From a virus, in the IMG/VR virus record IMGVR_UViG_3300030419_006839, positions 32,001 to 96,000 of that record: a stretch of DNA of 64,000 nucleotides; one strand, 5' to 3'. The notes beneath the pieces are model-generated. The model searched no databases, had not been told where the DNA came from, and worked only from the letters and a program-made list of their open reading frames with translations. Shown in pieces: positions 5,006 to 53,512 of the stretch. Position 1 is the stretch's first letter. Every line of letters begins with the position of its first letter. A program made the translations under genes and the position numbers.

Positions 5006-8000
5006 ATGGCACAAATAGATATTAATGTAGCTCTTGAAGGTTTTCAAAGAGCCAATCAATCATTACAAAATTTAGAAGATAGAATAAATGCCATTAATGA
5101 AGCTAGGAAAAGGCAAGAAGTAGCTGAGAGATCTGTCCAAGAAGCACAAAGAAGATTAAATATAACACAAGATGCTTCTTCAGCTTCAGCAAGCTCTGTC
5201 GAGATTGCTACTGCAGCATTATCTGAAAGAACAAGGGAATATGGAGAAGCTGTAGCAGCATCTCGTAATCAAGTTGAAATACTAGCAGTAAGTTTAAAAA
5301 GCTCATTAGTTGATGGATTAGCCCGTGTTGCTGCTGCTTCAATAGATGCTGCTTCTAAATGGGAGAATTTTACCTTAGCTATGAATTCTGTATCTGTTAG
5401 TTCAGATAGAGCAGCAGAATCAATAGATAATTTAGTTAAAATTTCTAGACTTCCTGGAGTAACTTTAAATGATGCATTAGAGTCTAGTGTTAAACTGCAA
5501 GCAACTGGAGCTTCTGCAGAAGAAGCTGCTAGAATGGTTGCTGAATTAGGTAATGCCTTAGCTACCGTTGGTGCTACTCAAGGGCAATTGCAAGGTGTGA
5601 TGTTAGCAATCACACAAATCCAAGCTAAAGGATATGTCTATGCAGAAGAGATTTATCAAATTGCTGAACGACTCCCCCAGATCAGACAAATAACTAAAGA
5701 TATATATGGTACAGCTAACACAGAAATAATTAAAGCAGAAGGTTTTACGGCAAAGGAATTCTTAAGGGGATTAACTGATGGTCTTGAAAGATTACCTAGA
5801 TTGAAAGATTCTTTAACTAATTCTATAAAAAACTTAAATAATGAGATATTTCTTTTATTTAGAACAGTAGGTGAGGATTTAGTTAAAGCCCTAACTACTG
5901 CTGCTAATTTAGCTAGTGAGTTTTTAAGAGCAGTAAATTCATTAAATCCTGCTGTATTAAAAGCTGTTGGTAATCTTACAATGCTTTCTCTTGTTTTGAT
6001 TACAGTAGATAGAACTCTTAAAACATTGAATCAATCTAAATCAGTTTTGGCAATATTTGAAGTTTTTCAGAAGGGAGCAGTTATGGGTGGACTAACTAAG
6101 TTTTCAACTGGACTTAGTAGTTCTTTAGGAAAGGTTGCTACAGCATTTTCACTTATTGGTTCACAAATAGCTAAATTATTACCTTTTGTTGCTGGTTTTA
6201 CTACATTGGTTGGAGGATTAGTAGCAGCGTTGGCTGTAGTTTCTATAGGTACAGTACTATATATAAAACATAAAACTAAGTTAGCAACAAAATTAAAAGA
6301 AGTTCAAGAATCAACAGCAGAGACAACAGAGGAGTTCAAAAAGTACAACGCACTATTAGGAGATACCAGACTTGCAATAGCTCAAGCAGAGTCAATAGAT
6401 CAATTAACTCAAAGTATAGATAAAGAAACTGATGCTAGGATTAAAAGAAGACTTGAGGTTGAGCGTGAGTTAAAATATCAACAATCATCTAAACAAGTGA
6501 AAAGTTTATTTCAGAGAAGTACTGATTCTAAAGGTAATGAGAGATTAACTTTTAACATTAAAAGTGAAAACGACTTATTAGCAACTCAAGAAGAGATAAG
6601 AGAAAGAAACATAAAAAACATACAAAAACAAATCAAACAAGCATCAGAAATTGTGGAAGTAGCTAGGAAAAATATGAATAAGAAGAGTCTTAATCCATTT
6701 AAGATTTTTGATGAAGAGAAAACTTCAGAGAAAAGGTTAGTCGTGTATCAAGATGCTTTAAAAGAACAGCATAAATTAATGTCTATGTTGGATTCGTATG
6801 TATCAACAAGGGAAAGAACTACGAAACTTTTATCTATTAACTTAGAAAAAAGTTTGAATGAAGCTGAACAAGATATACAGAAGTTTAGTACTTTTTCTCA
6901 AGATCAATTAACTCAAATAGAAAATGCTGGATCTCTTACAAAGAGAAAGCAAGTAGAGGAAAACCTTGCTGCTCAAAATGCTTTACGAACTAGTTTAGCT
7001 CAAAATAGAAAAGAAATGATTTCTATACAAAAAGAACTATTGAAAAACCAATTTAGAGATTTAGTTCAGATATTATCTGATGAAAGTGGTGAATTTGCTA
7101 AATTAGAACAAGAACAAAGGTTAAGAGTTTCAGAAGAAATGATAAGGCAACTTGATAAACTAAGAACAAGGGAACTTAGTGGACAAGATATAACAGGAGA
7201 AAGACTTAAATTAGATGTTGGTGATTTTTTAGGTGACCAGAATATTGATATTAAAATAAACACAATACTAGACCCAACTACAGTTCAAAATATTGGCCCT
7301 GCAATTGCTCAGTTTAAAACTCTTGCTAATAGGTTTGAAACAATGGAAACACAAGCAAGGAAGTATAAAGAAGAAGAAAGACAAAGACTTAATGAGCAAC
7401 TATATACTAATGAAAAAACTAAATTAGAACTAAAAGAAATAGAATTCACTTTAGAAAGAAATAAATCTAGTTTAACAAACACTTCAGAAGCTCAAGAATA
7501 TTTAAATACATTAACTGAACGTCATTTTGAAATACTTAAACTAGATTTAGAAATATTGAAAGCTACAAACGATAATGAACAAGAAAGATTGGAAGTTTTA
7601 GAAAAACAAAAGATTTCAGTAACTGAATTTTATACTGCTAAATTACAGAAAATGAAGGAAGAACATAATCTTCTAAAATCTAATTTAGAGCTTGAGATGA
7701 AAATAGGAATGGCTCAATCTGGTGGAGGATCTGATTCTGAAACTGTTCAAAGTTTTATTTCTTTATCTCAGGCATTAAATAAAATACAAACACAAAGAGA
7801 TAAATTGCTTAAGACTTCTCAAAGACAAACTGAATTGGAGAACAAAAGAATAAGTACGGATAAGTCTTCCGCTGAACTCCAAGAGGAACTTGATAAAGAA
7901 CGTACTAAATTAAGTAGACTGACAGTAACCTCTGAAAGAAAATTTGAAACAGAGAGAAAAAACCTTGAAAGACTAAAGAAAGAACAACTTTCAGAAGTTT

Positions 8001-22852: not shown

Positions 22853-25800
22853 ATGGGATACGTTCCATTACATGTACATTCACACTTTTCACTACTTGAT
22901 GGTTTAGAATCACCAAAACAACTAATACAGAGGGCTAAAGATGTTGGTATAGATGCATTAGCCTTAACTGATCATGGTACTATGGGTGGTCTTATAGATT
23001 TTTATTTTAGCTGTAAAGAAGAAAACATAAAGCCAATTATGGGTTCTGAATTTTATTTTGCAGAAGATAGATTAATTAAAGAAAAAACTGCTCATGGAAA
23101 TTCTAACTATCATCAAACAATTCTTGCAAAAAACATAGAAGGTTGGAAAAACTTAATCACTCTGACTACAGAAGCAGCATCAACTGGTTTTTATAGAAAC
23201 CCTAGAATAGATTTTTCCTTATTAGAACAACATAATGATGGATTAATAGTTGGATCTGGTTGTGCTGCTAGTATAATAAGTAAATGTATTGAATCTGATG
23301 ACTTTTCTAAAGTCAAATGGCTATTTAACTTCTTTAAAAAGAATTTTGATGGAAGATTTTTTGCTGAATTAACCTCCATAGAAAATATATATGAAAATGG
23401 AGACTTAGCCGTAGATCAGAAAAAGATAAATAAATACCTAATTCAATATGCTAAAGAGTTTGGTATTCCTTTCACAATAATGTCAGATGCCCACTACGCT
23501 GAAAAAGAGCATTATGATGAACACGATCTTCTACTTGCAGTTCAGACTAAGAAAAAACTGAAAGATAAAGATAGATTTAGATTTGGAACTAAAGAAGTTT
23601 GGCTAAAAAGTGAAGATGATATGTGGGATTATTGGCATAGAGAAGGTAAGGATCATATATCAGAAGATGATTTTGCTACAGCACTAGAAAATACTGTTAA
23701 AATAGCAGAAATGACTTCTATTGATTTAGAAGAATATTATAAATCATATCGTATGCCTAAACTAGATGTTAAAGATGCAAGAGAAGCTCTCTTTAATCGT
23801 GCTTTAAACAATAAAGAAAGAACTATGTTAATAAACAGGTTGTCTGACTCAGAACAATCTAAATATGTTTCTAGGTTAAATCGTGAATTAAATTTAATAG
23901 TAGATCAAGGATTTGCATCTTATTTCATGATGACTGCGGATTTAACTGACCATATGCGTGAGAATAAGATAATGAAAGGTTTAGCTAGAGGTTCCGCAGG
24001 AGGCTCTCTTTTGGCGTATATGCTTGGCATTACCGATATTGACCCTATCACACACAACCTATCATTTGAACGCTTCATGAACGAAGATAAAGCGTCTATG
24101 CCCGATATAGATATAGACATAGATGATGAAAAACGACAAGAAATCTTAGACTATTTTATAGGTAAATATGGAACAGACAACGTTTCTCAAATAGGAACTA
24201 GAATAACAATGCAATCTAAGTTAGCTAGTAAAGATGTTGGTAGAACTTTAGGTATTTCTTTCGATAAGTTAAATGATTTAAGTGATGATTTGGAAGTCTT
24301 ATCTACAGTTAACAACTTCAAGGGAACAAAGGAGGAAATAAACAACATTATTTCAGGTTTGAATGAACAATTAATCAGTTCAAATCCATCTCAGAATAGT
24401 AAGTTAACTAAGAAATTAGAATCTTGGAAAAAAATTAAAAATATTTCTGAAAAACACCCACAATGGCTACCTATGTCATCTAGAGTGTCTGGAAAACCAA
24501 AAGCAATAGGTAAACATGCTGCAGGTATTGTTGTGGCAGATGACTCATTAAAGAAAATATTACCACTACAACATGCTAAGAATGAAACATTGGTGACTGA
24601 GTGGTCTGATGGCCTTTCAAGAAAAGAATTATCTGATGTTGTAAAGGTATTAAAGTTTGATTTATTGGGGCTTTCTAATTTAGGTATAATTCAGAACACT
24701 ATTGACCTTATTAGACAGAGACATAATGAAACAAAAAGATTAGATTTAAATCTTTCTGACCAAAACATACTAAATTCAATCGTTTTAGATGATCCGTATG
24801 TTTTTGACAATTGTTTACCTAATAAATTAATGGGAGTTTTTCAATTTGACACATATGCTGCAGAAAGAGTGCTTAATCTTATAACTCCTGAGAATATTAT
24901 TGAACTTTGTGCATTAAATGCCATGAATAGACCTGCTGCTTTACAGGCAAATGTTCCATTTATGTACGCACAGAGAAAAACTGGAAAAACAAAAATAGAA
25001 TATTCCCATCCATTAATGGAAGAAATATTAAAGGAAACCTATGGATTAATAATATATCAAGAGCAAGTCATGGAGATTGCCAATAAGATAGGAGGATTAA
25101 CTCCAGCAGAAACAGATAAGTTTAGAAAGGTTCTAGTTAAGGTAACTGAATCTAATAAAGAAAAAGAAGATAAAGAAAGGATAAGTTTAATTGATAAATT
25201 TCAGGTTGGTGCATTAGAGAAAGGAATGAGTCCTGATGACATAGTTTCTTTATCAGAAAAGTTAATTTATTTTTCAGGATATGGGTTTAATAAATCTCAT
25301 AGTAGATCTTATGCCTTATTAGCATATTACACTATGTATTTAAAAACTTATTTTTATCCAGAATTTTTAACGGCATATTTAAATAAAAGACCAGAGAATT
25401 TAGATAGAGCTATAAGAGAAGCTGGATTCGATATGTTTTTACCAGTAGATGTGAATCAATCTAATAATAGTTTTATTTTAGATGAAAGTGGTAGAATAAG
25501 AGTAGGTTTTTCAGCAATAAAAGGTTTAGGTGCAGTTGCAGTAAAGGAAATAGTAGAAAAAAGACCTTTTATGGACTTAGATGATTTAAAAAATAAGGTT
25601 GAAAAAAGAAAGGTAAATAAGACTAGAATTTCTGCGTTAATAAAGAGTGGTGCTTTAACTTCTTTGAAGGTGAAAACCAACCTAGAGTCTGAGTTACAGG
25701 TTTTAGGAATACCTCTTTGGTCAATTAAAAAACAACTTTTCTTGATAAAAAGATTAAAAAATGATCTTAGATTACCTGCTAGAGGTAGTCAGGTTTTAAA

Positions 25801-26065
25801 CAATGAGGATATAGACTACGTTGAAGATGGAACTTCTGTAATTTCTTTAGGATTTATAAATAAGATTGAAAAGAAATTTAAATCTGGAGGATATTTGGCA
25901 GAGTTATATGATGGAACTTCATATGTTTCCCTAGTTAAGTATTCTTTAAATCAAAATGATACATACCCTAGATTGGGTCAAATAGTATTGATTGAAGGGG
26001 AAAAGAAGACATATGCTAAACACAACTCTACTCAATTAATGGTCAATAGGGTAAAGGGGTTTTAA
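22853..26065 (+). CDS. dnaE: DNA polymerase III alpha subunit (C-family)
   Basis: PHP LHVHSHFSLLDG, ALTDHG, RGSAGGSL, MPDIDID, KFDLLGL, YGFNKSH. Confidence 0.97.
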   Translation: MGYVPLHVHSHFSLLDGLESPKQLIQRAKDVGIDALALTDHGTMGGLIDFYFSCKEENIKPIMGSEFYFAEDRLIKEKTAHGNSNYHQTILAKNIEGWKNLITLTTEAASTGFYRNPRIDFSLLEQHNDGLIVGSGCAASIISKCIESDDFSKVKWLFNFFKKNFDGRFFAELTSIENIYENGDLAVDQKKINKYLIQYAKEFGIPFTIMSDAHYAEKEHYDEHDLLLAVQTKKKLKDKDRFRFGTKEVWLKSEDDMWDYWHREGKDHISEDDFATALENTVKIAEMTSIDLEEYYKSYRMPKLDVKDAREALFNRALNNKERTMLINRLSDSEQSKYVSRLNRELNLIVDQGFASYFMMTADLTDHMRENKIMKGLARGSAGGSLLAYMLGITDIDPITHNLSFERFMNEDKASMPDIDIDIDDEKRQEILDYFIGKYGTDNVSQIGTRITMQSKLASKDVGRTLGISFDKLNDLSDDLEVLSTVNNFKGTKEEINNIISGLNEQLISSNPSQNSKLTKKLESWKKIKNISEKHPQWLPMSSRVSGKPKAIGKHAAGIVVADDSLKKILPLQHAKNETLVTEWSDGLSRKELSDVVKVLKFDLLGLSNLGIIQNTIDLIRQRHNETKRLDLNLSDQNILNSIVLDDPYVFDNCLPNKLMGVFQFDTYAAERVLNLITPENIIELCALNAMNRPAALQANVPFMYAQRKTGKTKIEYSHPLMEEILKETYGLIIYQEQVMEIANKIGGLTPAETDKFRKVLVKVTESNKEKEDKERISLIDKFQVGALEKGMSPDDIVSLSEKLIYFSGYGFNKSHSRSYALLAYYTMYLKTYFYPEFLTAYLNKRPENLDRAIREAGFDMFLPVDVNQSNNSFILDESGRIRVGFSAIKGLGAVAVKEIVEKRPFMDLDDLKNKVEKRKVNKTRISALIKSGALTSLKVKTNLESELQVLGIPLWSIKKQLFLIKRLKNDLRLPARGSQVLNNEDIDYVEDGTSVISLGFINKIEKKFKSGGYLAELYDGTSYVSLVKYSLNQNDTYPRLGQIVLIEGEKKTYAKHNSTQLMVNRVKGF

Positions 26066-26838
26066 TGAAAAAAATTATTATTGTTTTGTTTTTATTTTCA
26101 ATTAGTTGTTTTGCAAAAGATCTTTATCATAATAAAAATCTTATTTATTTTTGGAATTTTGATAATGAAAGAAGATTTTTAATAGACGTTAAATCAAATA
26201 CAATAGCACATAAAAGAGGAACTGTAAGGTGGATTCCAAGAGAGTATTCATATAATAATTCACCTGTTATTCATATACATGGTAATATAGATCCTAATTC
26301 TAGTTTTACAATACCTGCTAGATACCTTGAGCGTGAATTAAATGAGTGGACACTTGATTTTGAGTTTGGGGCTGGAAGTCATGATTTGGATCATACAAAT
26401 AGGGATAATGGAGAATTAATGCCCTTTGGTCAGATACTCAGATGGGGTGATTTAAGAATTACTTTTTATCAAGATTCTGCTCAAGGATGGAAAGGAATCG
26501 TGAGAATAATATATCAGGGTCAGAAGAGAACTATTGAGTATTTACGAGGGTTTAAATATTATTACATGGCAGTTAGATCGGAAGAAAATGGTATTTCAAT
26601 TTGGCTAGATTCTTATTGTACTGATTATATTGAGATACCTAGAACTTCTGTAGTTGGTTTACCAATAGTTTTTGGAGGTAATGGGTTTGCTGGTAGGTTT
26701 GATGATATAAAGGTCTATAATGAAAGACTTAAACCCTGGGAAATAACAAGTAATTATTGGGGGAAAGAGTTAAATATTGAATCTAAAGACAAATTAATAT
26801 TTTTATGGTCAAAAATAAAAAAACAAGGAGATTTATAG
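26065..26838 (+). CDS. secreted LamG/ConA-like lectin-domain protein with Poribacteria-type C-terminal motif
   Basis: Signal peptide; LIYFWNFD and FAGRFDDIKVYNERL LamG hallmarks; terminal IESKDKLIFLWSKIK. Confidence 0.75.
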   Translation: MKKIIIVLFLFSISCFAKDLYHNKNLIYFWNFDNERRFLIDVKSNTIAHKRGTVRWIPREYSYNNSPVIHIHGNIDPNSSFTIPARYLERELNEWTLDFEFGAGSHDLDHTNRDNGELMPFGQILRWGDLRITFYQDSAQGWKGIVRIIYQGQKRTIEYLRGFKYYYMAVRSEENGISIWLDSYCTDYIEIPRTSVVGLPIVFGGNGFAGRFDDIKVYNERLKPWEITSNYWGKELNIESKDKLIFLWSKIKKQGDL

Positions 26839-29221: not shown

Positions 29222-29255
29222 TAAAGTTAAATCAAAATAGTCGATATATATAATA
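29222..29255 (+). promoter_or_regulatory. class-1 sigma28-like promoter
   Basis: TAAA-N14-GTCGATAT ATATAATA. Confidence 0.7.
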
Positions 29256-36837: not shown

Positions 36838-37212
36838 TTGGAGGAGATTGTGATAGTTGTTAGAACGGTTGAAATAGTTTCAGTCGTATTTTTATTTTTT
36901 ATTTCCATTTTATTGTTGTTTCTCCTGATAGGTTGTGAGATGAGAGAGAATGCGGTGATTAGAGAGCAGACCGACATTTTTACTGATGAAATACGAGAAA
37001 AGAATAAGGATATGCAATCCTTGTCTAATCAGTTAAAAGTTGCAGAGGAGAATATTAAGACGTTGAAGGCAAAGTTACTTTGTCGTGAAGAACTGATAGA
37101 TGAAGCAATGGAACAGGCTAAGAGAGATACTCTTAAAGAAAATCCAGTGTTGATCTCGATCAATAAAAATCCACAAAAATCTAATAAGGTACAGGCAGAA
37201 CGTAATCAATAA
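36838..37212 (+). CDS. membrane-anchored coiled-coil protein
   Basis: TM/lipobox-like LLIGC then coiled coil. Confidence 0.5.
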   Translation: MEEIVIVVRTVEIVSVVFLFFISILLLFLLIGCEMRENAVIREQTDIFTDEIREKNKDMQSLSNQLKVAEENIKTLKAKLLCREELIDEAMEQAKRDTLKENPVLISINKNPQKSNKVQAERNQ

Positions 37213-37252
37213 TGTACCAAAAAAAAGATAATTAAAAGGGGGAAGCAAAGTA

Positions 37253-37612
37253 ATGAAAATCAGATTGTTAGTAATGGGAATTATATTGATGTTTGTGTCT
37301 AGTTGTGCGGTGAAACCTGAGTTTCTAGTAGAAGGACGTACTACTATCAGATCAACGTTGATTACAGAATCTCAGTTATTAGAACAGCAAAGATTAGAAA
37401 GGCAAATTTGGAACTGGAAGAATAGACAACGTATCAGATTTCAAATGGAGATGATGAGACACAGACATCCACAAATGAGAATAGGTAGAAATACCTATAA
37501 TCCCAATCGAAGGGGAATTCGTAGACATATCATTCGTAGAAAACATAATGGTGTTAAAATTCATAAGAGAAACTATTGGTCTAACAAAGTAGAATCAGAA
37601 CGTAATAAATAA
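37253..37612 (+). CDS. putative lipoprotein, Arg-rich
   Basis: Lipobox FVSSC. Confidence 0.55.
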   Translation: MKIRLLVMGIILMFVSSCAVKPEFLVEGRTTIRSTLITESQLLEQQRLERQIWNWKNRQRIRFQMEMMRHRHPQMRIGRNTYNPNRRGIRRHIIRRKHNGVKIHKRNYWSNKVESERNK

Positions 37613-38197
37613 TATATGATTAAGAAAGATGGAAAATTAATATCTATATTGGAAATAAATTTTCGTGAAAAACTTAGGGTTGAGAAATTAGAAAAAGATT
37701 TTGAAGAATTAAAAATTAAGTTCAAAAAAGTAAAAGAAGAGAACAAGAAGTTAAAAAAACTTTTAAAAAAGAAATGAAAGAAATATATTTATTAAAAGAA
37801 ATTTTTGAAGAACTGAATGATATGATGCATATCAAAGGAGGAGGTGAAACACCAACGAAAGAGTGGGAAGATAAGTATAGATTCCTTCAAAGAAGGGTAG
37901 ACTACTTTAAAAAAAAATTATTAAAATAAGAAATAGAGAAAACAAAGAACAATTAGAAAAGATTAGAGAAATACAACGAAAGGAATATGTTAAAGGAGAA
38001 ATAAACCTATACCAAAAAAACGAAAGGAAAAGATTAAAATATGAGGTCTTGAAAAGTAAAAAAACAAGTAGATAATAATGAGAATTATACCAATTTCAGG
38101 AACGGTTGGAAGTTCTTTCCATCACTATTTTGAATATTATAGGAGGAATATATTAGATAACTATCTAAATGAATCACTAATAGATCGGAGGTATAAA

Positions 38198-38386
38198 ATG
38201 GATGTTAGTACAAATAGATCAGATAATAATACACCTGATTATTTAAGATATATTCAAGAAGCAAAACAAGCGGAAAGAAAACAAGAAACTAGAAATTTAA
38301 TGAACGAAGAAAAAGAAAACAAAAATAAAAGCGTAGGCAATATAGTTCAAACAACTATTGGAACTATCATTGACATCTATGCATAA
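38198..38386 (+). CDS. small protein with YjfB-motility-like C-terminus
   Basis: GGAGGT RBS; ends IGTIIDIYA; immediately upstream of flagellin. Confidence 0.55.
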   Translation: MDVSTNRSDNNTPDYLRYIQEAKQAERKQETRNLMNEEKENKNKSVGNIVQTTIGTIIDIYA

Positions 38387-38405
38387 AAAACAGGAGAAAT
38401 TTATA

Positions 38406-39290
38406 ATGTTAAATAGTGTAGCAAATAGAGCATATCAAAACTATAAAAAGACAACTGCAGAAATTCAAGAAACTATGCAATTATTGGCAGATGGCAAACC
38501 TAAACTTAATCCAACAGATCAATCTAGAGTTAATAAAATGAACTCTAGAATTAGGACATTAAAAACCGCAAATACAAATGTAAAAGAATCTTTAAACCTT
38601 TTGAGATCTGCAGATAGTGGAATTAGTTCTATTAGAAGTGTGGTTTCTAAACTAAGAGGTATTGCTCAAGAATCTCAGTCAGAAGAAATTAGTGCCGAAG
38701 AACGTGCTGATTTACAGGTAGAGTATGATACTTTATATAAAGAAATAGATTTCATATTAGACAATACAGAATATGATGGAGTTAAACTACTTGATGGTAC
38801 GTTTGCAACTAAGAATGTAGTTATTGATTCTGATGATTCAGTTCAAATAGATATTGATGATATGACTGAAGGTTCATTACGTATTGGTGCTTATACAAAA
38901 ACATTAGAAATTGGCGATCCTGAGATTGGTTTGGATAATGGTCAAGGTGGAGTTTATGCCCCAGGGGATTCTATAAGTATTGTCAAGTCTTCCGTAGACA
39001 CTGTTGAAAAGGCTCAAGACGCAGTTGCACGTTTAGATTTTGCTTTGGGTAAGTTAGATGAGGAATCAGTAAAACTAAATTCAAAGGCTCAGAGATTTGA
39101 ATTTACTACAAGTCATTTAACAAGTATGGTAGGAGTATTGGAAGAATCGGTTGATACCATCGAAGATTTTGATGAGGCTAGAGAAATGAGTCGTTTGGCA
39201 CAAGCTCAAATAAGACAACAATCAGCCATTGCCATGATGGTACAGGCACAACAATTATCTCAAACTATTCACCAATTACTTAACCAGTAA
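38406..39290 (+). CDS. fliC: divergent flagellin
   Basis: Flagellin_N (NVKESLNLLRSADSGI...ERADLQVEYDTLYKEIDFILDNTEYDGVKLLDG) and Flagellin_C (IEDFDEAREMSRLAQAQIRQQSAIAMMVQAQQLSQTIHQLL); AGGAG RBS. Confidence 0.9.
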   Translation: MLNSVANRAYQNYKKTTAEIQETMQLLADGKPKLNPTDQSRVNKMNSRIRTLKTANTNVKESLNLLRSADSGISSIRSVVSKLRGIAQESQSEEISAEERADLQVEYDTLYKEIDFILDNTEYDGVKLLDGTFATKNVVIDSDDSVQIDIDDMTEGSLRIGAYTKTLEIGDPEIGLDNGQGGVYAPGDSISIVKSSVDTVEKAQDAVARLDFALGKLDEESVKLNSKAQRFEFTTSHLTSMVGVLEESVDTIEDFDEAREMSRLAQAQIRQQSAIAMMVQAQQLSQTIHQLLNQ

Positions 39291-39539
39291 ATGATTACAT
39301 ATAGAATAGAAGACATACCTGACGATAGAGGATGGTTAACCACTACATGGGGAAAAGCTGTAGGCTCTGAACCATGTAGTTTTATTTGTCATCACTGTGC
39401 TATAATTTGGAGGGCAAACTTCCCTAGAAATACAATTCTTGGAGTAAGGAATAGTAACGTTTGGGAAAGAAATCCATGTCCAAGTTGTATAAAAAATAAA
39501 CTAAAGAAATATGAGGGATTAGATGAAGTGGGTAATTAG
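39291..39539 (+). CDS. zinc-ribbon protein
   Basis: CHHC...CPSC. Confidence 0.55.
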   Translation: MITYRIEDIPDDRGWLTTTWGKAVGSEPCSFICHHCAIIWRANFPRNTILGVRNSNVWERNPCPSCIKNKLKKYEGLDEVGN

Positions 39540-39604
39540 TTTTTCAATTGGTTTTATAATTGCAATTAGTCTTCTTTACGGCATTGCACAATTTTGGACT
39601 TGGT

Positions 39605-39638
39605 AAAAAAAAAGGATGGGAATTAACCCATCCTTTTT
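39605..39638. terminator. bidirectional intrinsic terminator
   Basis: A-run, AGGATGGG/CCCATCCT stem, T-run, between convergent genes. Confidence 0.85.
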
Positions 39639-40340: not shown

Positions 40341-40664
40341 TTGAAAACACATATAACTAGATCACACCTTGAAGAATATGAAATCAGTTTAGTTAATAAG
40401 ATAAAAAGTCTATACAAACAAGTATCTTCTGATGATTCTGGTAAAACTGAAATACAAGTAGTACTAGATAGAGGTGGGTGTATAGTTTGGATGGATATTA
40501 TTTGCTCATCTGGGCATAAGCATTTAGATGAATATGCAAAAAAAATAATAGAAGATGCTTGTCCGTTTAAAGACTTCCCTGAAAATTCATTGCATCATTA
40601 TTTAGACATTATTATAACAATTATTTTTAAACATAAGGAGAATCATGAACGTAACGTTAGTTGA
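40341..40664 (+). CDS. stand-alone TonB/TolA C-terminal domain
   Basis: GKTEIQVVLDRGG...SSGHKHLDEYAKKIIEDACPFKDFP. Confidence 0.7.
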   Translation: MKTHITRSHLEEYEISLVNKIKSLYKQVSSDDSGKTEIQVVLDRGGCIVWMDIICSSGHKHLDEYAKKIIEDACPFKDFPENSLHHYLDIIITIIFKHKENHERNVS

Positions 40665-41325
40665 TAAAATGGGTAATGACCTTAGTGTTGTAAATGCTGC
40701 TAGGGTTTCATTCGGTAAAAAAAAGGAAAAATTTGATGATAAGGATAAGAAACTTATTGGTTACCTTGCTAGGCATAATCATTGGACTCCTTTCGGCCAT
40801 GTTTCTTTACAGTTTCACATCGTTGCTCCTGTCTTTGTTGCTAGGCAATTAGTTAAACATCAAGTTGGCTTGGTTTGGAATGAAATTAGTAGGAGGTATG
40901 TTGATAGTGACCCTGAGTATTATACTCCAGAAAAATGGAGACTTAAAGCAAGTAATAAAAAGCAGGGAAGTTCTGATGAATTTTATTACAATGAAGTAGT
41001 AACAAAAGATGCTTTTGATCCTAGTATACCTAGTCCTGGAGGTAATCCTTATGAAATGCCTTCATATAAATACATTTGTGAACAAGCTAGGATTGCATAT
41101 AACTCTATGATAAATATTGGTATTTGTCCAGAACAAGCAAGAATGATATTACCTCAAAGTATGATGACTGAGTGGTATTGGTCGGGTACTTTAATGGCAT
41201 TTGCTAGAGTTTGTAATCTAAGATGTAAACCAGATACGCAGTTGGAGACTCAATGGATAGCAGATAAAATAGATAAGTTAGCAGTTGAAGTTGCCCCTGT
41301 TAGTTGGGAACAATTAAGAAAATGA
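40645..41325 (+). CDS. thyX: flavin-dependent thymidylate synthase
   Basis: VNAARVSF, HWTPF, RQLVKH...NEISRRY, EQARMILP. Confidence 0.95.
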   Translation: MNVTLVDKMGNDLSVVNAARVSFGKKKEKFDDKDKKLIGYLARHNHWTPFGHVSLQFHIVAPVFVARQLVKHQVGLVWNEISRRYVDSDPEYYTPEKWRLKASNKKQGSSDEFYYNEVVTKDAFDPSIPSPGGNPYEMPSYKYICEQARIAYNSMINIGICPEQARMILPQSMMTEWYWSGTLMAFARVCNLRCKPDTQLETQWIADKIDKLAVEVAPVSWEQLRK

Positions 41326-43305: not shown

Positions 43306-43336
43306 AGTTATCTAGAATTTGTCGATAATATATAGT
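43303..43336 (+). promoter_or_regulatory. class-1 sigma28-like promoter
   Basis: TAAA-N14-GTCGATAA TATATAGT. Confidence 0.7.
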
Positions 43337-43360
43337 AGAAGCAAAATAAATGGAGGAAAA

Positions 43361-43849
43361 ATGAACGTCTTCTACTTAGATCATAACACTGATGATTGTG
43401 CCAAGTATCATAATGATAAGCATTGTGTCAAGATGATACTTGAGTATGCACAATTATTATCTACTTGTCATAGGGTATTAGATGGAGATCAATGTATCGA
43501 CAAAGTATATAAAGCAACCCATAAGAATCATCCTTCTGCTATTTGGGCTAGAAGTAATTCCGAAAACTATAAGTGGTTGTATAAGCTTTTTTGTTCTCTA
43601 TCTAAGGAATACGAGTATCGTTATGATAGAAGTCACTTAAGTTTTGTCAAGTTAGAAAATGTATTAGTTAATCAACCTAAAAACATAGTTACAGGTAGTT
43701 TTAATCAACCAACACCAGCAATGCCTGAATACTGTAAGATTCCAAATAACTCATTAGCTTCTTACAGGAAATATTATATAAATGAGAAAAGCCATATTGC
43801 TTATTGGAAAAAAAGAGAAATACCTAGTTGGTATAAGGAGAACAAATGA
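43361..43849 (+). CDS. pyrimidine-dimer DNA glycosylase/endonuclease V-like protein
   Basis: MNVFYLD, DKHCVKMILEYAQLLST, HKNHPSAIW, EYEYRY. Confidence 0.8.
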   Translation: MNVFYLDHNTDDCAKYHNDKHCVKMILEYAQLLSTCHRVLDGDQCIDKVYKATHKNHPSAIWARSNSENYKWLYKLFCSLSKEYEYRYDRSHLSFVKLENVLVNQPKNIVTGSFNQPTPAMPEYCKIPNNSLASYRKYYINEKSHIAYWKKREIPSWYKENK

Positions 43850-44920: not shown

Positions 44921-45388
44921 ATGACTAAAGAATTGCAAGAAGAAGTTGATCAAGCAGAAAATGATCATGAATTAATTTTACTTCTCAAAACTGAAGTAGA
45001 AAAACTTACTAATGAAATAGAAAAAACTGAACGACATTTAGAGGATTCTTTAAGTGAACATCACGAAACAGCAGAGCAGTTAGCTTTACATGAAAAACTA
45101 TCTGCTCAACAAACTCTATTGAAACATGTATTTTATGGAGTACTATCTCTAGTTCTAGGTATGTGGAGTTTAGTCTTTGTGGGTTGGTTTACTGGACAAG
45201 AAGCTATTGAACGTGAAATGGCTTTCTTTGAAAGGATAATTCTTGTTTTCATAGGAATCGTTGGAGGTGCAGTTTCAAGTTTCTTTGATGTTAGAAATTT
45301 TGCCCTAAATAGGGATGGTAATGGTAATGGAAACTCTAATGGTAATGGGAATGGGAATGGAAAAAAAAGAATGAATGATACTGACTAG
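44921..45388 (+). CDS. coiled-coil + 2 TM membrane protein with (NG)n tail
   Basis: Two hydrophobic helices; GNGNGN repeat. Confidence 0.6.
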   Translation: MTKELQEEVDQAENDHELILLLKTEVEKLTNEIEKTERHLEDSLSEHHETAEQLALHEKLSAQQTLLKHVFYGVLSLVLGMWSLVFVGWFTGQEAIEREMAFFERIILVFIGIVGGAVSSFFDVRNFALNRDGNGNGNSNGNGNGNGKKRMNDTD

Positions 45389-52436: not shown

Positions 52437-52877
52437 TTAAGCTGTTGGATATTGTTGAAAAAAGTTAATTTCTAATTGTTTATAATCACCATTAGCTTCC
52501 TTTTTTTTGATCCACTCTTGTTCTTCATTAACAATTTCTGCTATTTTTTCTAAAAATTCTAAGTTATTAAACATATGCGGTTGTTCATATATTGATATAT
52601 TATTTATTTCAATTGGTTTATAACCTTGTAGGTTGATTGTTACATCAACGGAACTAATCGTGCAATCATCATGTTGATGACCGTAATAATTAAATTCTTC
52701 CATAGTAAACATATCTTCGTCAAAATAGTCTATTTCAGGTAAAAAATCTTCAATCTCAAAAGAATCATTGCATTCTAAAGTTCCAGAAACAAGGCTTGAA
52801 ACCTCTGTTCTAAAATGGACTTTATTAATAGTAATGTCTTTAGCACTAATTTCTTGTTTTAATTTTAAATTATCCAT
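52437..52877 (-). CDS. acidic hypothetical protein
   Basis: Coupled ORF. Confidence 0.55.
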   Translation of the reverse strand: MDNLKLKQEISAKDITINKVHFRTEVSSLVSGTLECNDSFEIEDFLPEIDYFDEDMFTMEEFNYYGHQHDDCTISSVDVTINLQGYKPIEINNISIYEQPHMFNNLEFLEKIAEIVNEEQEWIKKKEANGDYKQLEINFFQQYPTA

Positions 52878-53079
52878 AAATATCTAACTTTGCTCCTAAA
52901 TTTGGGTTAGTAGATTTTGCCTTTTTTCTTTCATGTTTTGCTAAATCTAAAGTTGCTTCTATCCTTATTTCTCTTTTTGCATGTTGGATTTCATTGTATA
53001 ATTGAAATTGTTCCAACGTACTAAAGTTTGCTATCCTACTTTGTCTCAAGAATCTTGGATTCATGAATGTAGTTATCAT
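52870..53079 (-). CDS. small protein with YjfB-motility-like C-terminus
   Basis: Ends NPNLGAKLDIYG. Confidence 0.55.
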   Translation of the reverse strand: MITTFMNPRFLRQSRIANFSTLEQFQLYNEIQHAKREIRIEATLDLAKHERKKAKSTNPNLGAKLDIYG

Positions 53080-53336: not shown

Positions 53337-53512
53337 TCAGTACTCCTTAATTCGTTCTTTGTTCCTATTATATAATATCGACAATTCCTAGAAAACTTTA
53401 GCCTTTTTTTCAAAAAAAGTGCCTTTTTTTTGATTTAATTTTTTCTGTAAAACATTATTACTTTATTATAGGACGTGTTGATGGGCCTGGGGCCATTGAT
53501 TAGGCTAACATT

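Follow-up and report, generated by a model that had tools for sequence, protein, structure and literature searches.

The only published phage flagellin that we found is that of FRphi, a temperate gut prophage that remodels the flagellum of its lysogen (PMC13418256). In Enterobacter, the FRphi flagellin FliC_P takes the place of the host flagellin and forms the filament (Walker et al., Nat Microbiol 2026, PMC13418256), and FRphi pairs FliC_P with the RNA-guided repressor TldR (PMC13418256; Wiegand et al., bioRxiv 10.1101/2023.11.30.569447). Our full-text searches of the literature returned no paper that describes a flagellin in marine or T4-like phages. Here we describe a flagellin gene and a small partner gene in a 64,000-nucleotide stretch of viral DNA (the window), which covers positions 32001-96000 of the 104,851-bp IMG/VR record IMGVR_UViG_3300030419_006839; the record is estimated to be 73% complete. 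What is new is a deep virus-only clade of flagellins, old because it is monophyletic on a long stem, strongly selected and accompanied by a dedicated phage-only partner family; the clade is spread over two unrelated marine phage lineages and is coupled to arrays of sigma-28-type promoters. We favour, with a probability of roughly 0.45, the explanation that the phage supplies a functional flagellin subunit, which is exported by the host flagellar apparatus and built into the filament. The two genes are the following:

38406-39290, plus strand: phage flagellin of 294 amino acids (aa), with D0/D1 helices and a small middle beta domain, recognised by its N- and C-terminal Pfam domains, its structural model and its fold matches.
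38078-38386 (102 aa) or 38198-38386 (62 aa), plus strand: flagellin partner gene (c2 family), whose product ends in GTIIDIYA.

The open reading frame (ORF) of the flagellin starts at an ATG with an AGGAG Shine-Dalgarno sequence 8 nt upstream. Its product matched Flagellin_N (PF00669) over residues 3-133 with 53.8 bits (cut-off 26.6; 57.2 bits in a six-frame search), and Flagellin_C (PF00700) over residues 210-292 with 49 bits (cut-off 23). The AlphaFold2 model, built from an alignment of 12 clade members, had a mean predicted local distance difference test score of 80.9 and consisted of helices at residues 2-28, 36-89, 97-120 and 200-293 plus a small beta domain. Its best Foldseek matches were filament structures (Leptospira, Bacillus, Vibrio and Kurthia), with template modelling (TM) scores of 0.69-0.71 and E-values down to 2e-12, and in a hidden Markov model (HMM) alignment the clade profile aligned end to end with 77 solved flagellins. 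A previous description of this DNA by a model that saw only its letters (the sequence-only reading) had proposed an intact 294-aa flagellin that keeps the D0/D1 helices, lacks the usual INTN start and replaces the RLSSGLRINSAxDDAAG spoke region with a shorter stretch. Our results agree with it on each of these points: both Pfam domains are above cut-off and the model has the full D0/D1 fold; the protein begins with MLNSV and has no INTN-type motif; and the spoke region reads LLADGKPKLNPTDQS, which in the HMM alignment is 4 residues shorter than in solved flagellins, with the GLRINSAxDDAAG motif gone beyond recognition. The MLNSV-type start and the shortened, motif-less spoke are common to most of the viral clade. 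A sister subclade, P0123, has kept a spoke of canonical length. The middle domain varies across the clade by insertions and deletions. In a search of the PHROG families the flagellin had one weak match only, phrog_16088, a family without assigned function.

We searched for relatives of this flagellin in several collections. A search of 5.8 billion proteins returned 163 flagellin relatives, all of them from metagenomes and with the unusual N-terminus in common. In IMG/VR, a scan with the single flagellin sequence gave no matches and an alignment-based scan gave 24 contigs with the main form of the gene; with 11 more that carry the sister form P0123 and one reached via the partner gene, members of the clade are found on 36 viral contigs. 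In a profile search of 1.8 billion representatives the clade scored between 459 and 231 bits, and all other flagellins 160 bits or less. The D0/D1 parts of 107 sequences were placed in a tree, in which the viral flagellins were monophyletic (99 in the Shimodaira-Hasegawa-like approximate likelihood ratio test, SH-aLRT), on a stem of 1.27 changes per site. The tree and the survey of viral contigs had been suggested by the sequence-only reading, which also considered that the gene might be nearly identical to a host flagellin and lie on a chimeric contig. The gap in bit scores between the clade and its nearest outside relative, together with the phage genes on both flanks of the window flagellin, goes against this, and we conclude that the flagellin is a phage gene and not a host gene on a chimeric contig.

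When 185,579 species genomes (one per species) were scanned with the clade patterns, the only matches were on two short contigs of metagenome-assembled genomes (MAGs): L026 (NZCQ01000013.1), from a MAG labelled “Pacearchaeota”, and L027 (PBYE01000017.1), from a “Chromatiales” MAG. Both contigs carry T4-like phage genes, neither MAG has a flagellin other than the phage-type gene, and one of the two MAGs is labelled as an archaeon; the contigs are misbinned phage DNA. Among GenBank phages (tblastn, 50,697 records) we found no member of the clade, and only four weak matches to unrelated flagellins, with 24-31% identity, so no cultured phage carries this flagellin clade.

Most of the 36 flagellin-bearing contigs belong to T4-like marine myoviruses. 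In these the flagellin occupies a fixed site, directly upstream of gp33-gp59-gp32, with baseplate and tail-tube genes beyond; gp33 is the late-transcription co-activator, and gp32 is about 55% identical to the gp32 of cyanophages and pelagimyophages. The record that contains the window is also a phage, as it encodes a tape-measure protein, a minor tail protein, a DnaE-type DNA polymerase, ThyX, a deoxynucleoside monophosphate (dNMP) kinase, Hsp20 and a DNA ligase. Its G+C content is even along the window (0.28-0.35), and base composition is uniform around the flagellin. This phage, with its DnaE-type polymerase, is unrelated to the T4-like phages; however, many of its genes are also present on the flagellin-bearing T4-like contigs, some with 80-92% identity, which shows heavy gene exchange between two unrelated phage lineages. 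Because of this sharing, we consider that the flagellin module circulates in a gene pool common to both lineages; the simplest such pool would be that of phages infecting a single host group. Genes 66-92% identical to those of the flagellin-bearing T4-like contigs are located at window positions 26065-26838, 36838-37612, 40645-41325, 43319-43849 and 44921-45388; examples of genes common to the DnaE-type phage and the T4-like contigs are a LamG-like protein (80%) and a 119-aa ORF (92%).

The ratio of nonsynonymous to synonymous substitution rates (omega) between pairs of viral flagellin genes was 0.04-0.15 where synonymous divergence was unsaturated. When pooled by region, omega was 0.044 in the C-terminal and 0.074 in the N-terminal part of D0, 0.073 in the N-terminal and 0.11 in the C-terminal part of D1, 0.12 in the spoke, and highest in the middle domain (0.19). 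Values of 0.04-0.19 speak against relaxed selection, which the sequence-only reading had named among the observations that would refute its proposal; the flagellin gene is under strong purifying selection, strongest on D0, and appears to be functional. The regional differences form the pattern that would be expected of a subunit that polymerises via D0/D1 and leaves its middle domain exposed. Marine plankton metagenomes of three or more studies also contain the flagellin stretch, and a 38.6-kb contig of another study carries the same DNA with 9 differences over the stretch. Contigs from two metatranscriptome libraries cover positions 38930-39227 and the junction between partner and flagellin (38308-38458). 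These RNA-library contigs are a weak hint of transcription, as carry-over of DNA is possible; parts of the stretch without such contigs carry no information on transcription.

The sequence-only reading had proposed that this phage uses sigma-28-type promoters widely, and this was borne out. The window has 15 matches to the pattern TAAAG-N12-15-TCGATA, where 0.06 would be expected, and most of them precede early genes of the minus strand. Two of the promoters matter for what follows:

53376-53400, minus strand: sigma-28-type promoter TAAAGTTTTCTAGGAATTGTCGATA, which drives an operon with a paralogue of the partner gene.
29222-29246, plus strand: the sigma-28-type promoter closest upstream of the flagellin on its own strand, 9 kb away.

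The clearest link between sigma-28 and the flagellin itself comes from the P0123 subclade. In 7 of the 7 P0123 loci with enough upstream DNA, the motif TAAAGTTT-N-(G/A)(C/A)CGATAT is found 34 nt before the flagellin ATG; this is a textbook sigma-28 promoter (for example TAAAGTTTTTCCAGAATATGCCGATAT), and a conserved leader follows it. In loci L031-L038, 34-60 nt upstream of the flagellin starts (e.g., L036:3626-3684), this leader after the sigma-28 promoter is near-invariant and reads ATATAAGTATACACTTTTTTTATAGGAG. It includes the stretch TATAAGTA, one base off the T4 late-promoter consensus TATAAATA; because of this single-base difference, a dual promoter (sigma-28 plus T4 late) before the P0123 flagellins is conceivable. 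The T4 late promoter TATAAATA was not found before the partner gene in the T4-like loci, where genes are tightly packed.

Use of host sigma-28 promoters is not known for T4-like phages. Nevertheless, one T4-like record of the main subclade (G154, IMGVR_UViG_3300007513_000054, which holds flagellin locus L018) has 10 forward-strand copies of TAAAGTTT-N-GTCGATA between positions 25758 and 38331, and none of the reversed control pattern. Its -10 element, GTCGATA, is the same variant as in the unrelated window phage. Since sigma-28 promoters precede the P0123 flagellins and recur in this T4-like record, the hosts would be FliA-containing flagellated bacteria, and at least some members of the clade are probably expressed as class-3 flagellar genes.

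The record of the window phage also encodes FlgM, the anti-sigma-28 factor, just outside the window on the minus strand (G000:C1:98411-98527; 31.7 bits, cut-off 25). We detected no sigma-70-family region 2 and no phage sigma factor in this record, and searches of it for FliS, FliW and CsrA found none of the three. FlgM was not found in five T4-like fragments, which are 22-34% complete. A k-mer search for repeated promoters in the 269 bp that precede the partner gene returned only AT-rich noise. Taken together, the promoter arrays, the phage FlgM and the promoter of the sister subclade support the view that the phages carrying this clade are tied to the host sigma-28 regulon.

As for the host, the best flagellin outside the clade (P0125, 160 bits) belongs to a cluster that includes the proteins MAJ72180.1 and OUT64774.1 of marine Candidatus Poribacteria MAGs. 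P0125 falls in the same group of 23 rows (SH-aLRT 99) as the viral clade, and a position as its immediate sister is unsupported (SH-aLRT 73-76). A metagenome contig (JACLAC010018466.1, L041) has two tandem 371-aa flagellin genes, 98% identical to the P0125 cluster, and both (promoters at 5895-5960 and 7340-7400) lie behind TTTTTTGAAAAAAGGCTAAAC-N16-ACCGATAAG. The upstream tract on this contig matches the phage promoters at window positions 53400, 52025, 55882 and 54511, with a spacer 2 nt longer than theirs. The Poribacteria flagellin resembles that of the phage in its C-terminal tail, and its promoters share the T-tract/GAAAAAAGGCTAAA upstream context with several phage promoters; it differs in its length of 371 aa, its canonical N-terminus and spoke, and the 2-nt difference in promoter spacer. 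We take this as a lead that a Poribacteria-like bacterium may be the host or the donor of the flagellin. If the sigma-28 promoters of pelagic Poribacteria turned out to have a GTCGATAT-type -10 element in the T-tract/GGCTAAAG context, a Poribacteria host would be supported.

The flagellin is in tight linkage with the small partner gene. Two starts are possible for it: the ATG at 38198 (62 aa) has a GGAGG Shine-Dalgarno sequence 7 nt upstream, and the ATG at 38078 (102 aa) has none. Close relatives of the window partner (73-76% identity) are called as 102-aa proteins with a conserved N-terminal extension of 40 residues, and over these 40 residues they are about 82% identical to the window sequence. 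Because both the 102-aa frame and the extension are conserved in relatives, the ORF probably starts at 38078. A 3-nt deletion at window position 38072, just before the ATG at 38078, is seen in three other runs (one RNA, two DNA) and leaves the 102-aa frame intact. The T4-like loci have, at the same place before the flagellin, a gene whose product is about 69 aa long and ends in GSxLDVxA/V, and the 62-aa peptide of the window is homologous to this family (hhalign probability 90.8%, E-value 1.2e-6). Scanning IMG/VR independently for the partner family gave 22 loci, all 22 with the flagellin as the next gene downstream.

A large protein collection contains 95 clusters of the family, none of them named and none with a Pfam domain. 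The nearest neighbours of the partner in the ESM Atlas are three clusters that are 100% viral, and all relatives found were unnamed metagenome or viral proteins. Its members are highly charged (with a HEREKH motif) and are under purifying selection in close pairs (omega 0.04-0.2). When the flagellin and the 62-aa partner were modelled as a complex from their own alignments, the prediction scored 0.00 against a mark of 0.32, with the fold of the partner uncertain, an outcome that carries no weight on either side of the question of binding. The P0123 subclade has no partner, and a small Cys-rich gene is found upstream of the flagellin instead. Across subclades the shortened spoke correlates with the presence of the partner, which is suggestive of a link between the two. 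The window phage has a second copy of the partner:

52870-53079, minus strand: stand-alone partner paralogue of 69 aa, whose product ends in GAKLDIYG; second gene of an early operon.

In BLASTP comparisons this paralogue clusters with the partner proteins of the T4-like loci, and its operon is the one driven by the sigma-28-type promoter at 53400-53376.

The sequence-only reading had likened both small peptides to YjfB, an uncharacterised small protein associated with a sigma-28 gene sub-module (PMC11607428). The resemblance is in the C-terminus, an ending of the type G-x-x-[LI]-D-[IV]-x-A on a protein of about 55-70 aa: the window peptides terminate in GTIIDIYA and GAKLDIYG and the partners in the T4-like loci in GSxLDVxA/V, while bona fide gammaproteobacterial YjfB proteins, which we fetched with the Pfam model from three genomes, have GNNIDVRA, GQNLDVVA and GQHIDVKA as their last residues, and follow the pattern [LV]G-x-x-[LI]-D-[VT]-x-A. 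However, the YjfB_motility model (PF14070) did not match the upstream peptide even at E-values up to 1 or 10, nor did any other Pfam family. The paralogue reached 11.3 bits (E-value 0.04; cut-off 27), over model positions 41-57 only, that is, over the C-terminal motif, and 1 of 13 members of the partner family matched at an E-value of 0.17. With hhalign, the partner aligned to a YjfB alignment of three sequences with probabilities of 1.2% (A3) and 15.3% (A2), and the C-terminal motif alone was aligned confidently; these alignments are small, so that a distant homology may have escaped them. The ending of the upstream peptide is therefore of the YjfB type as claimed, and the second peptide does exist, as a true paralogue of the partner; homology to YjfB is not demonstrable for either. 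Since the Pfam model fails and hhalign gives probabilities of 1-15%, we do not file the partner as a YjfB protein, with which it would share only the C-terminal motif and the size.

The course of events that we favour would be as follows. The phage infects a flagellated marine bacterium that uses sigma-28 and would make its flagellin together with the small partner. The type III export apparatus of the host flagellum most probably exports the phage subunit, which would then be built into the host filament. In this way the phage may supply or replace the bulk building block of the filament while it takes over host gene expression. The benefit to the phage could be that the infected cell is kept swimming, as with auxiliary metabolic genes, or that the surface or other properties of the filament are changed. 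An exported filament subunit is favoured because the D0 termini are complete and most constrained while the middle domain is exposed and more variable, and also because the gene has a non-structural position, relatives have a class-3 promoter and FRphi provides a precedent. Our results support the conclusion that what a bacterial flagellin requires for export and polymerisation has been kept in the phage protein.

Several observations weigh against this explanation. In the window, no sigma-28 site of the TAAA-N15-GCCGATAA type lies within 9 kb upstream of the flagellin, even with 3 mismatches allowed, and the promoter of this copy was not recognised, sigma-70-like sites being at chance level. 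No FliS-like chaperone was found in the record. The spoke, a loop nearly invariant in bacterial flagellins, is here 4 residues shorter and without its motif, which could block normal co-polymerisation. Finally, a Poribacteria-like flagellin with a similar promoter tract is the only host lead. The broader proposal of the sequence-only reading, that the locus is a candidate system for hijacking the flagellum, thus stands in part: the flagellin is phage-resident, intact and conserved, has a partner and is tied to sigma-28, but the partner is not demonstrably a YjfB protein and the window flagellin has no sigma-28 promoter of its own.

A related possibility, which we consider unlikely, is a dominant-negative or surface-changing subunit that is exported and caps, poisons or re-coats the filament, so that motility is stopped or the filament is hidden from flagellotropic phages (superinfection exclusion) or from grazers. 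In line with it, the spoke that links D0 and D1 is shortened and has lost its motif in the subclades with a partner gene, and the surface-facing middle domain, variable by insertions and deletions, has the highest omega; the tie to the sigma-28 regulon is equally compatible with this model and with a productive subunit. However, the canonical length of the P0123 spoke indicates that the deletion is not a design of the whole clade, and a subunit that polymerises productively would explain the very strong constraint on the two D0 helices no less well than a poison would. In FRphi, a search for superinfection exclusion gave no support for it (PMC13418256).

We are equally doubtful that the flagellin, perhaps with its partner, acts inside the cell as a decoy or regulator that titrates FliS/FliW or competes at the export gate, thereby shifting FlgM secretion, sigma-28 or CsrA in favour of the phage. 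FliS and FliW bind the C-terminal D0/D1 region of bacterial flagellins, and it is this region that is most constrained in the viral clade. The dependence of the phage on sigma-28-type promoters, its FlgM, and the position of the partner paralogue as an early gene behind such a promoter would also fit, as would the association of bacterial YjfB genes with the sigma-28 gene sub-module (PMC11607428). The N-terminal part of D0, however, is dispensable for FliS/FliW binding and is as constrained as D1 (omega 0.074). Homology between the partner and YjfB could not be demonstrated, and the T4-like fragments searched for FlgM, at 22-34% completeness, yielded none.

A more elaborate version, which we regard as improbable, is that flagellin and partner serve as a checkpoint tool on the FlgM/sigma-28 switch of the host, either as late export substrates or as binding partners, and not for swimming. 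In such a scheme, the early partner paralogue would first raise free sigma-28, and the phage FlgM, the flagellin and the second partner would later reset the switch. If this were true, unrelated marine phage lineages of one, possibly Poribacteria-like, host group would have captured a whole flagellar-regulation module and passed it among themselves.

It is very improbable that the flagellin fold has been co-opted for a fibre or decoration of the virion. The single weak PHROG match (phrog_16088) could be taken in its favour, but in neither phage lineage is the gene part of a structural module, the promoter that can be seen is of the host sigma-28 type and not a late phage promoter, and conservation extends to the complete D0 termini, which function in export and in polymerisation within the flagellar channel. 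That the gene belongs to a host and sits on a chimeric contig, or is a decaying passenger, is hardly credible given the even base composition, the phage genes on both sides, the score of 160 versus 231-459 bits, the strong purifying selection and the same DNA on the 38.6-kb contig of another study.

Around the flagellin, the neighbours are early/middle and nucleotide-metabolism genes (ThyX, dNMP kinase and Hsp20), with the structural module elsewhere. Two further features complete the putative transcription unit:

39291-39539, plus strand: Cys-rich ORF of 82 aa (CxxxCxxC ... CxxC), whose ATG directly abuts the flagellin stop codon.
39609-39638, plus strand: hairpin resembling an intrinsic terminator, with 12 pairs followed by a T run, which closes the unit of partner, flagellin and 82-aa ORF.

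Because its ATG abuts the flagellin stop codon, the 82-aa ORF is probably co-translated with the flagellin; it matched no Pfam and no PHROG family. Other strains carry an 82-nt repeat with a 42-nt insert around window positions 39498-39579. Beside ThyX, a 107-aa ORF (40341-40664) matched the TonB C-terminal domain PF13103 with 25.4 bits (cut-off 22), without an anchor or a linker.

If the phage subunit does enter the filament, the host functions sustained or reshaped by marine phages during infection would include motility as well as photosynthesis and nutrient uptake. The module would also offer a way to study what YjfB-like peptides do, and could serve as a marker that links uncultured phages to flagellated hosts.

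Finally, we compared the locus with the known systems closest to it. Like the window phage, FRphi carries a full-length flagellin with D0/D1; in FRphi this has been shown to replace the host subunit of the filament. FRphi is a temperate gut phage with a flagellin close to enterobacterial FliC, and the phages described here are marine T4-like myoviruses and a large DnaE-encoding phage. Unlike FliC_P, the window flagellin belongs to a deep virus-only clade and has an altered spoke, and its partner, 62-102 aa long, comes from a phage family that has no name. There is no TldR next to it: the adjacent genes are the 62-102-aa partner and the 82-aa Cys-rich ORF, and no TnpB/TldR-type zinc ribbon (Cas12f1-like, PF07282) was found in the 104.9-kb record (73% complete) at E-values up to 1.

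The YjfB_motility family (PF14070) resembles the partner in its length (about 55-71 aa), its ending G-x-x-[LI]-D-[IV]-x-[AV] and its association with flagellar genes. The partner differs in being highly charged (HEREKH), in failing the Pfam model and in its hhalign probabilities of 1-15%. Bacterial flagellins that consist of D0/D1 and a small middle domain only, such as Leptospira FlaB (9lry/9lrz), that of Kurthia (6t17), B. subtilis Hag (5wj*) and Pseudomonas type B (5wk5), have the same fold and size class as the phage protein (TM 0.64-0.71). They also have the N- and C-terminal Pfam domains, and their canonical C-terminal tail, of the ...QAQQLSxxxxQLL type, is resembled by that of the phage. 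In contrast to these, the phage flagellin, at about 20-23% identity, has no INTN start, has a spoke that is 4 residues shorter and without RIN...DDAAG, and is encoded by a phage.

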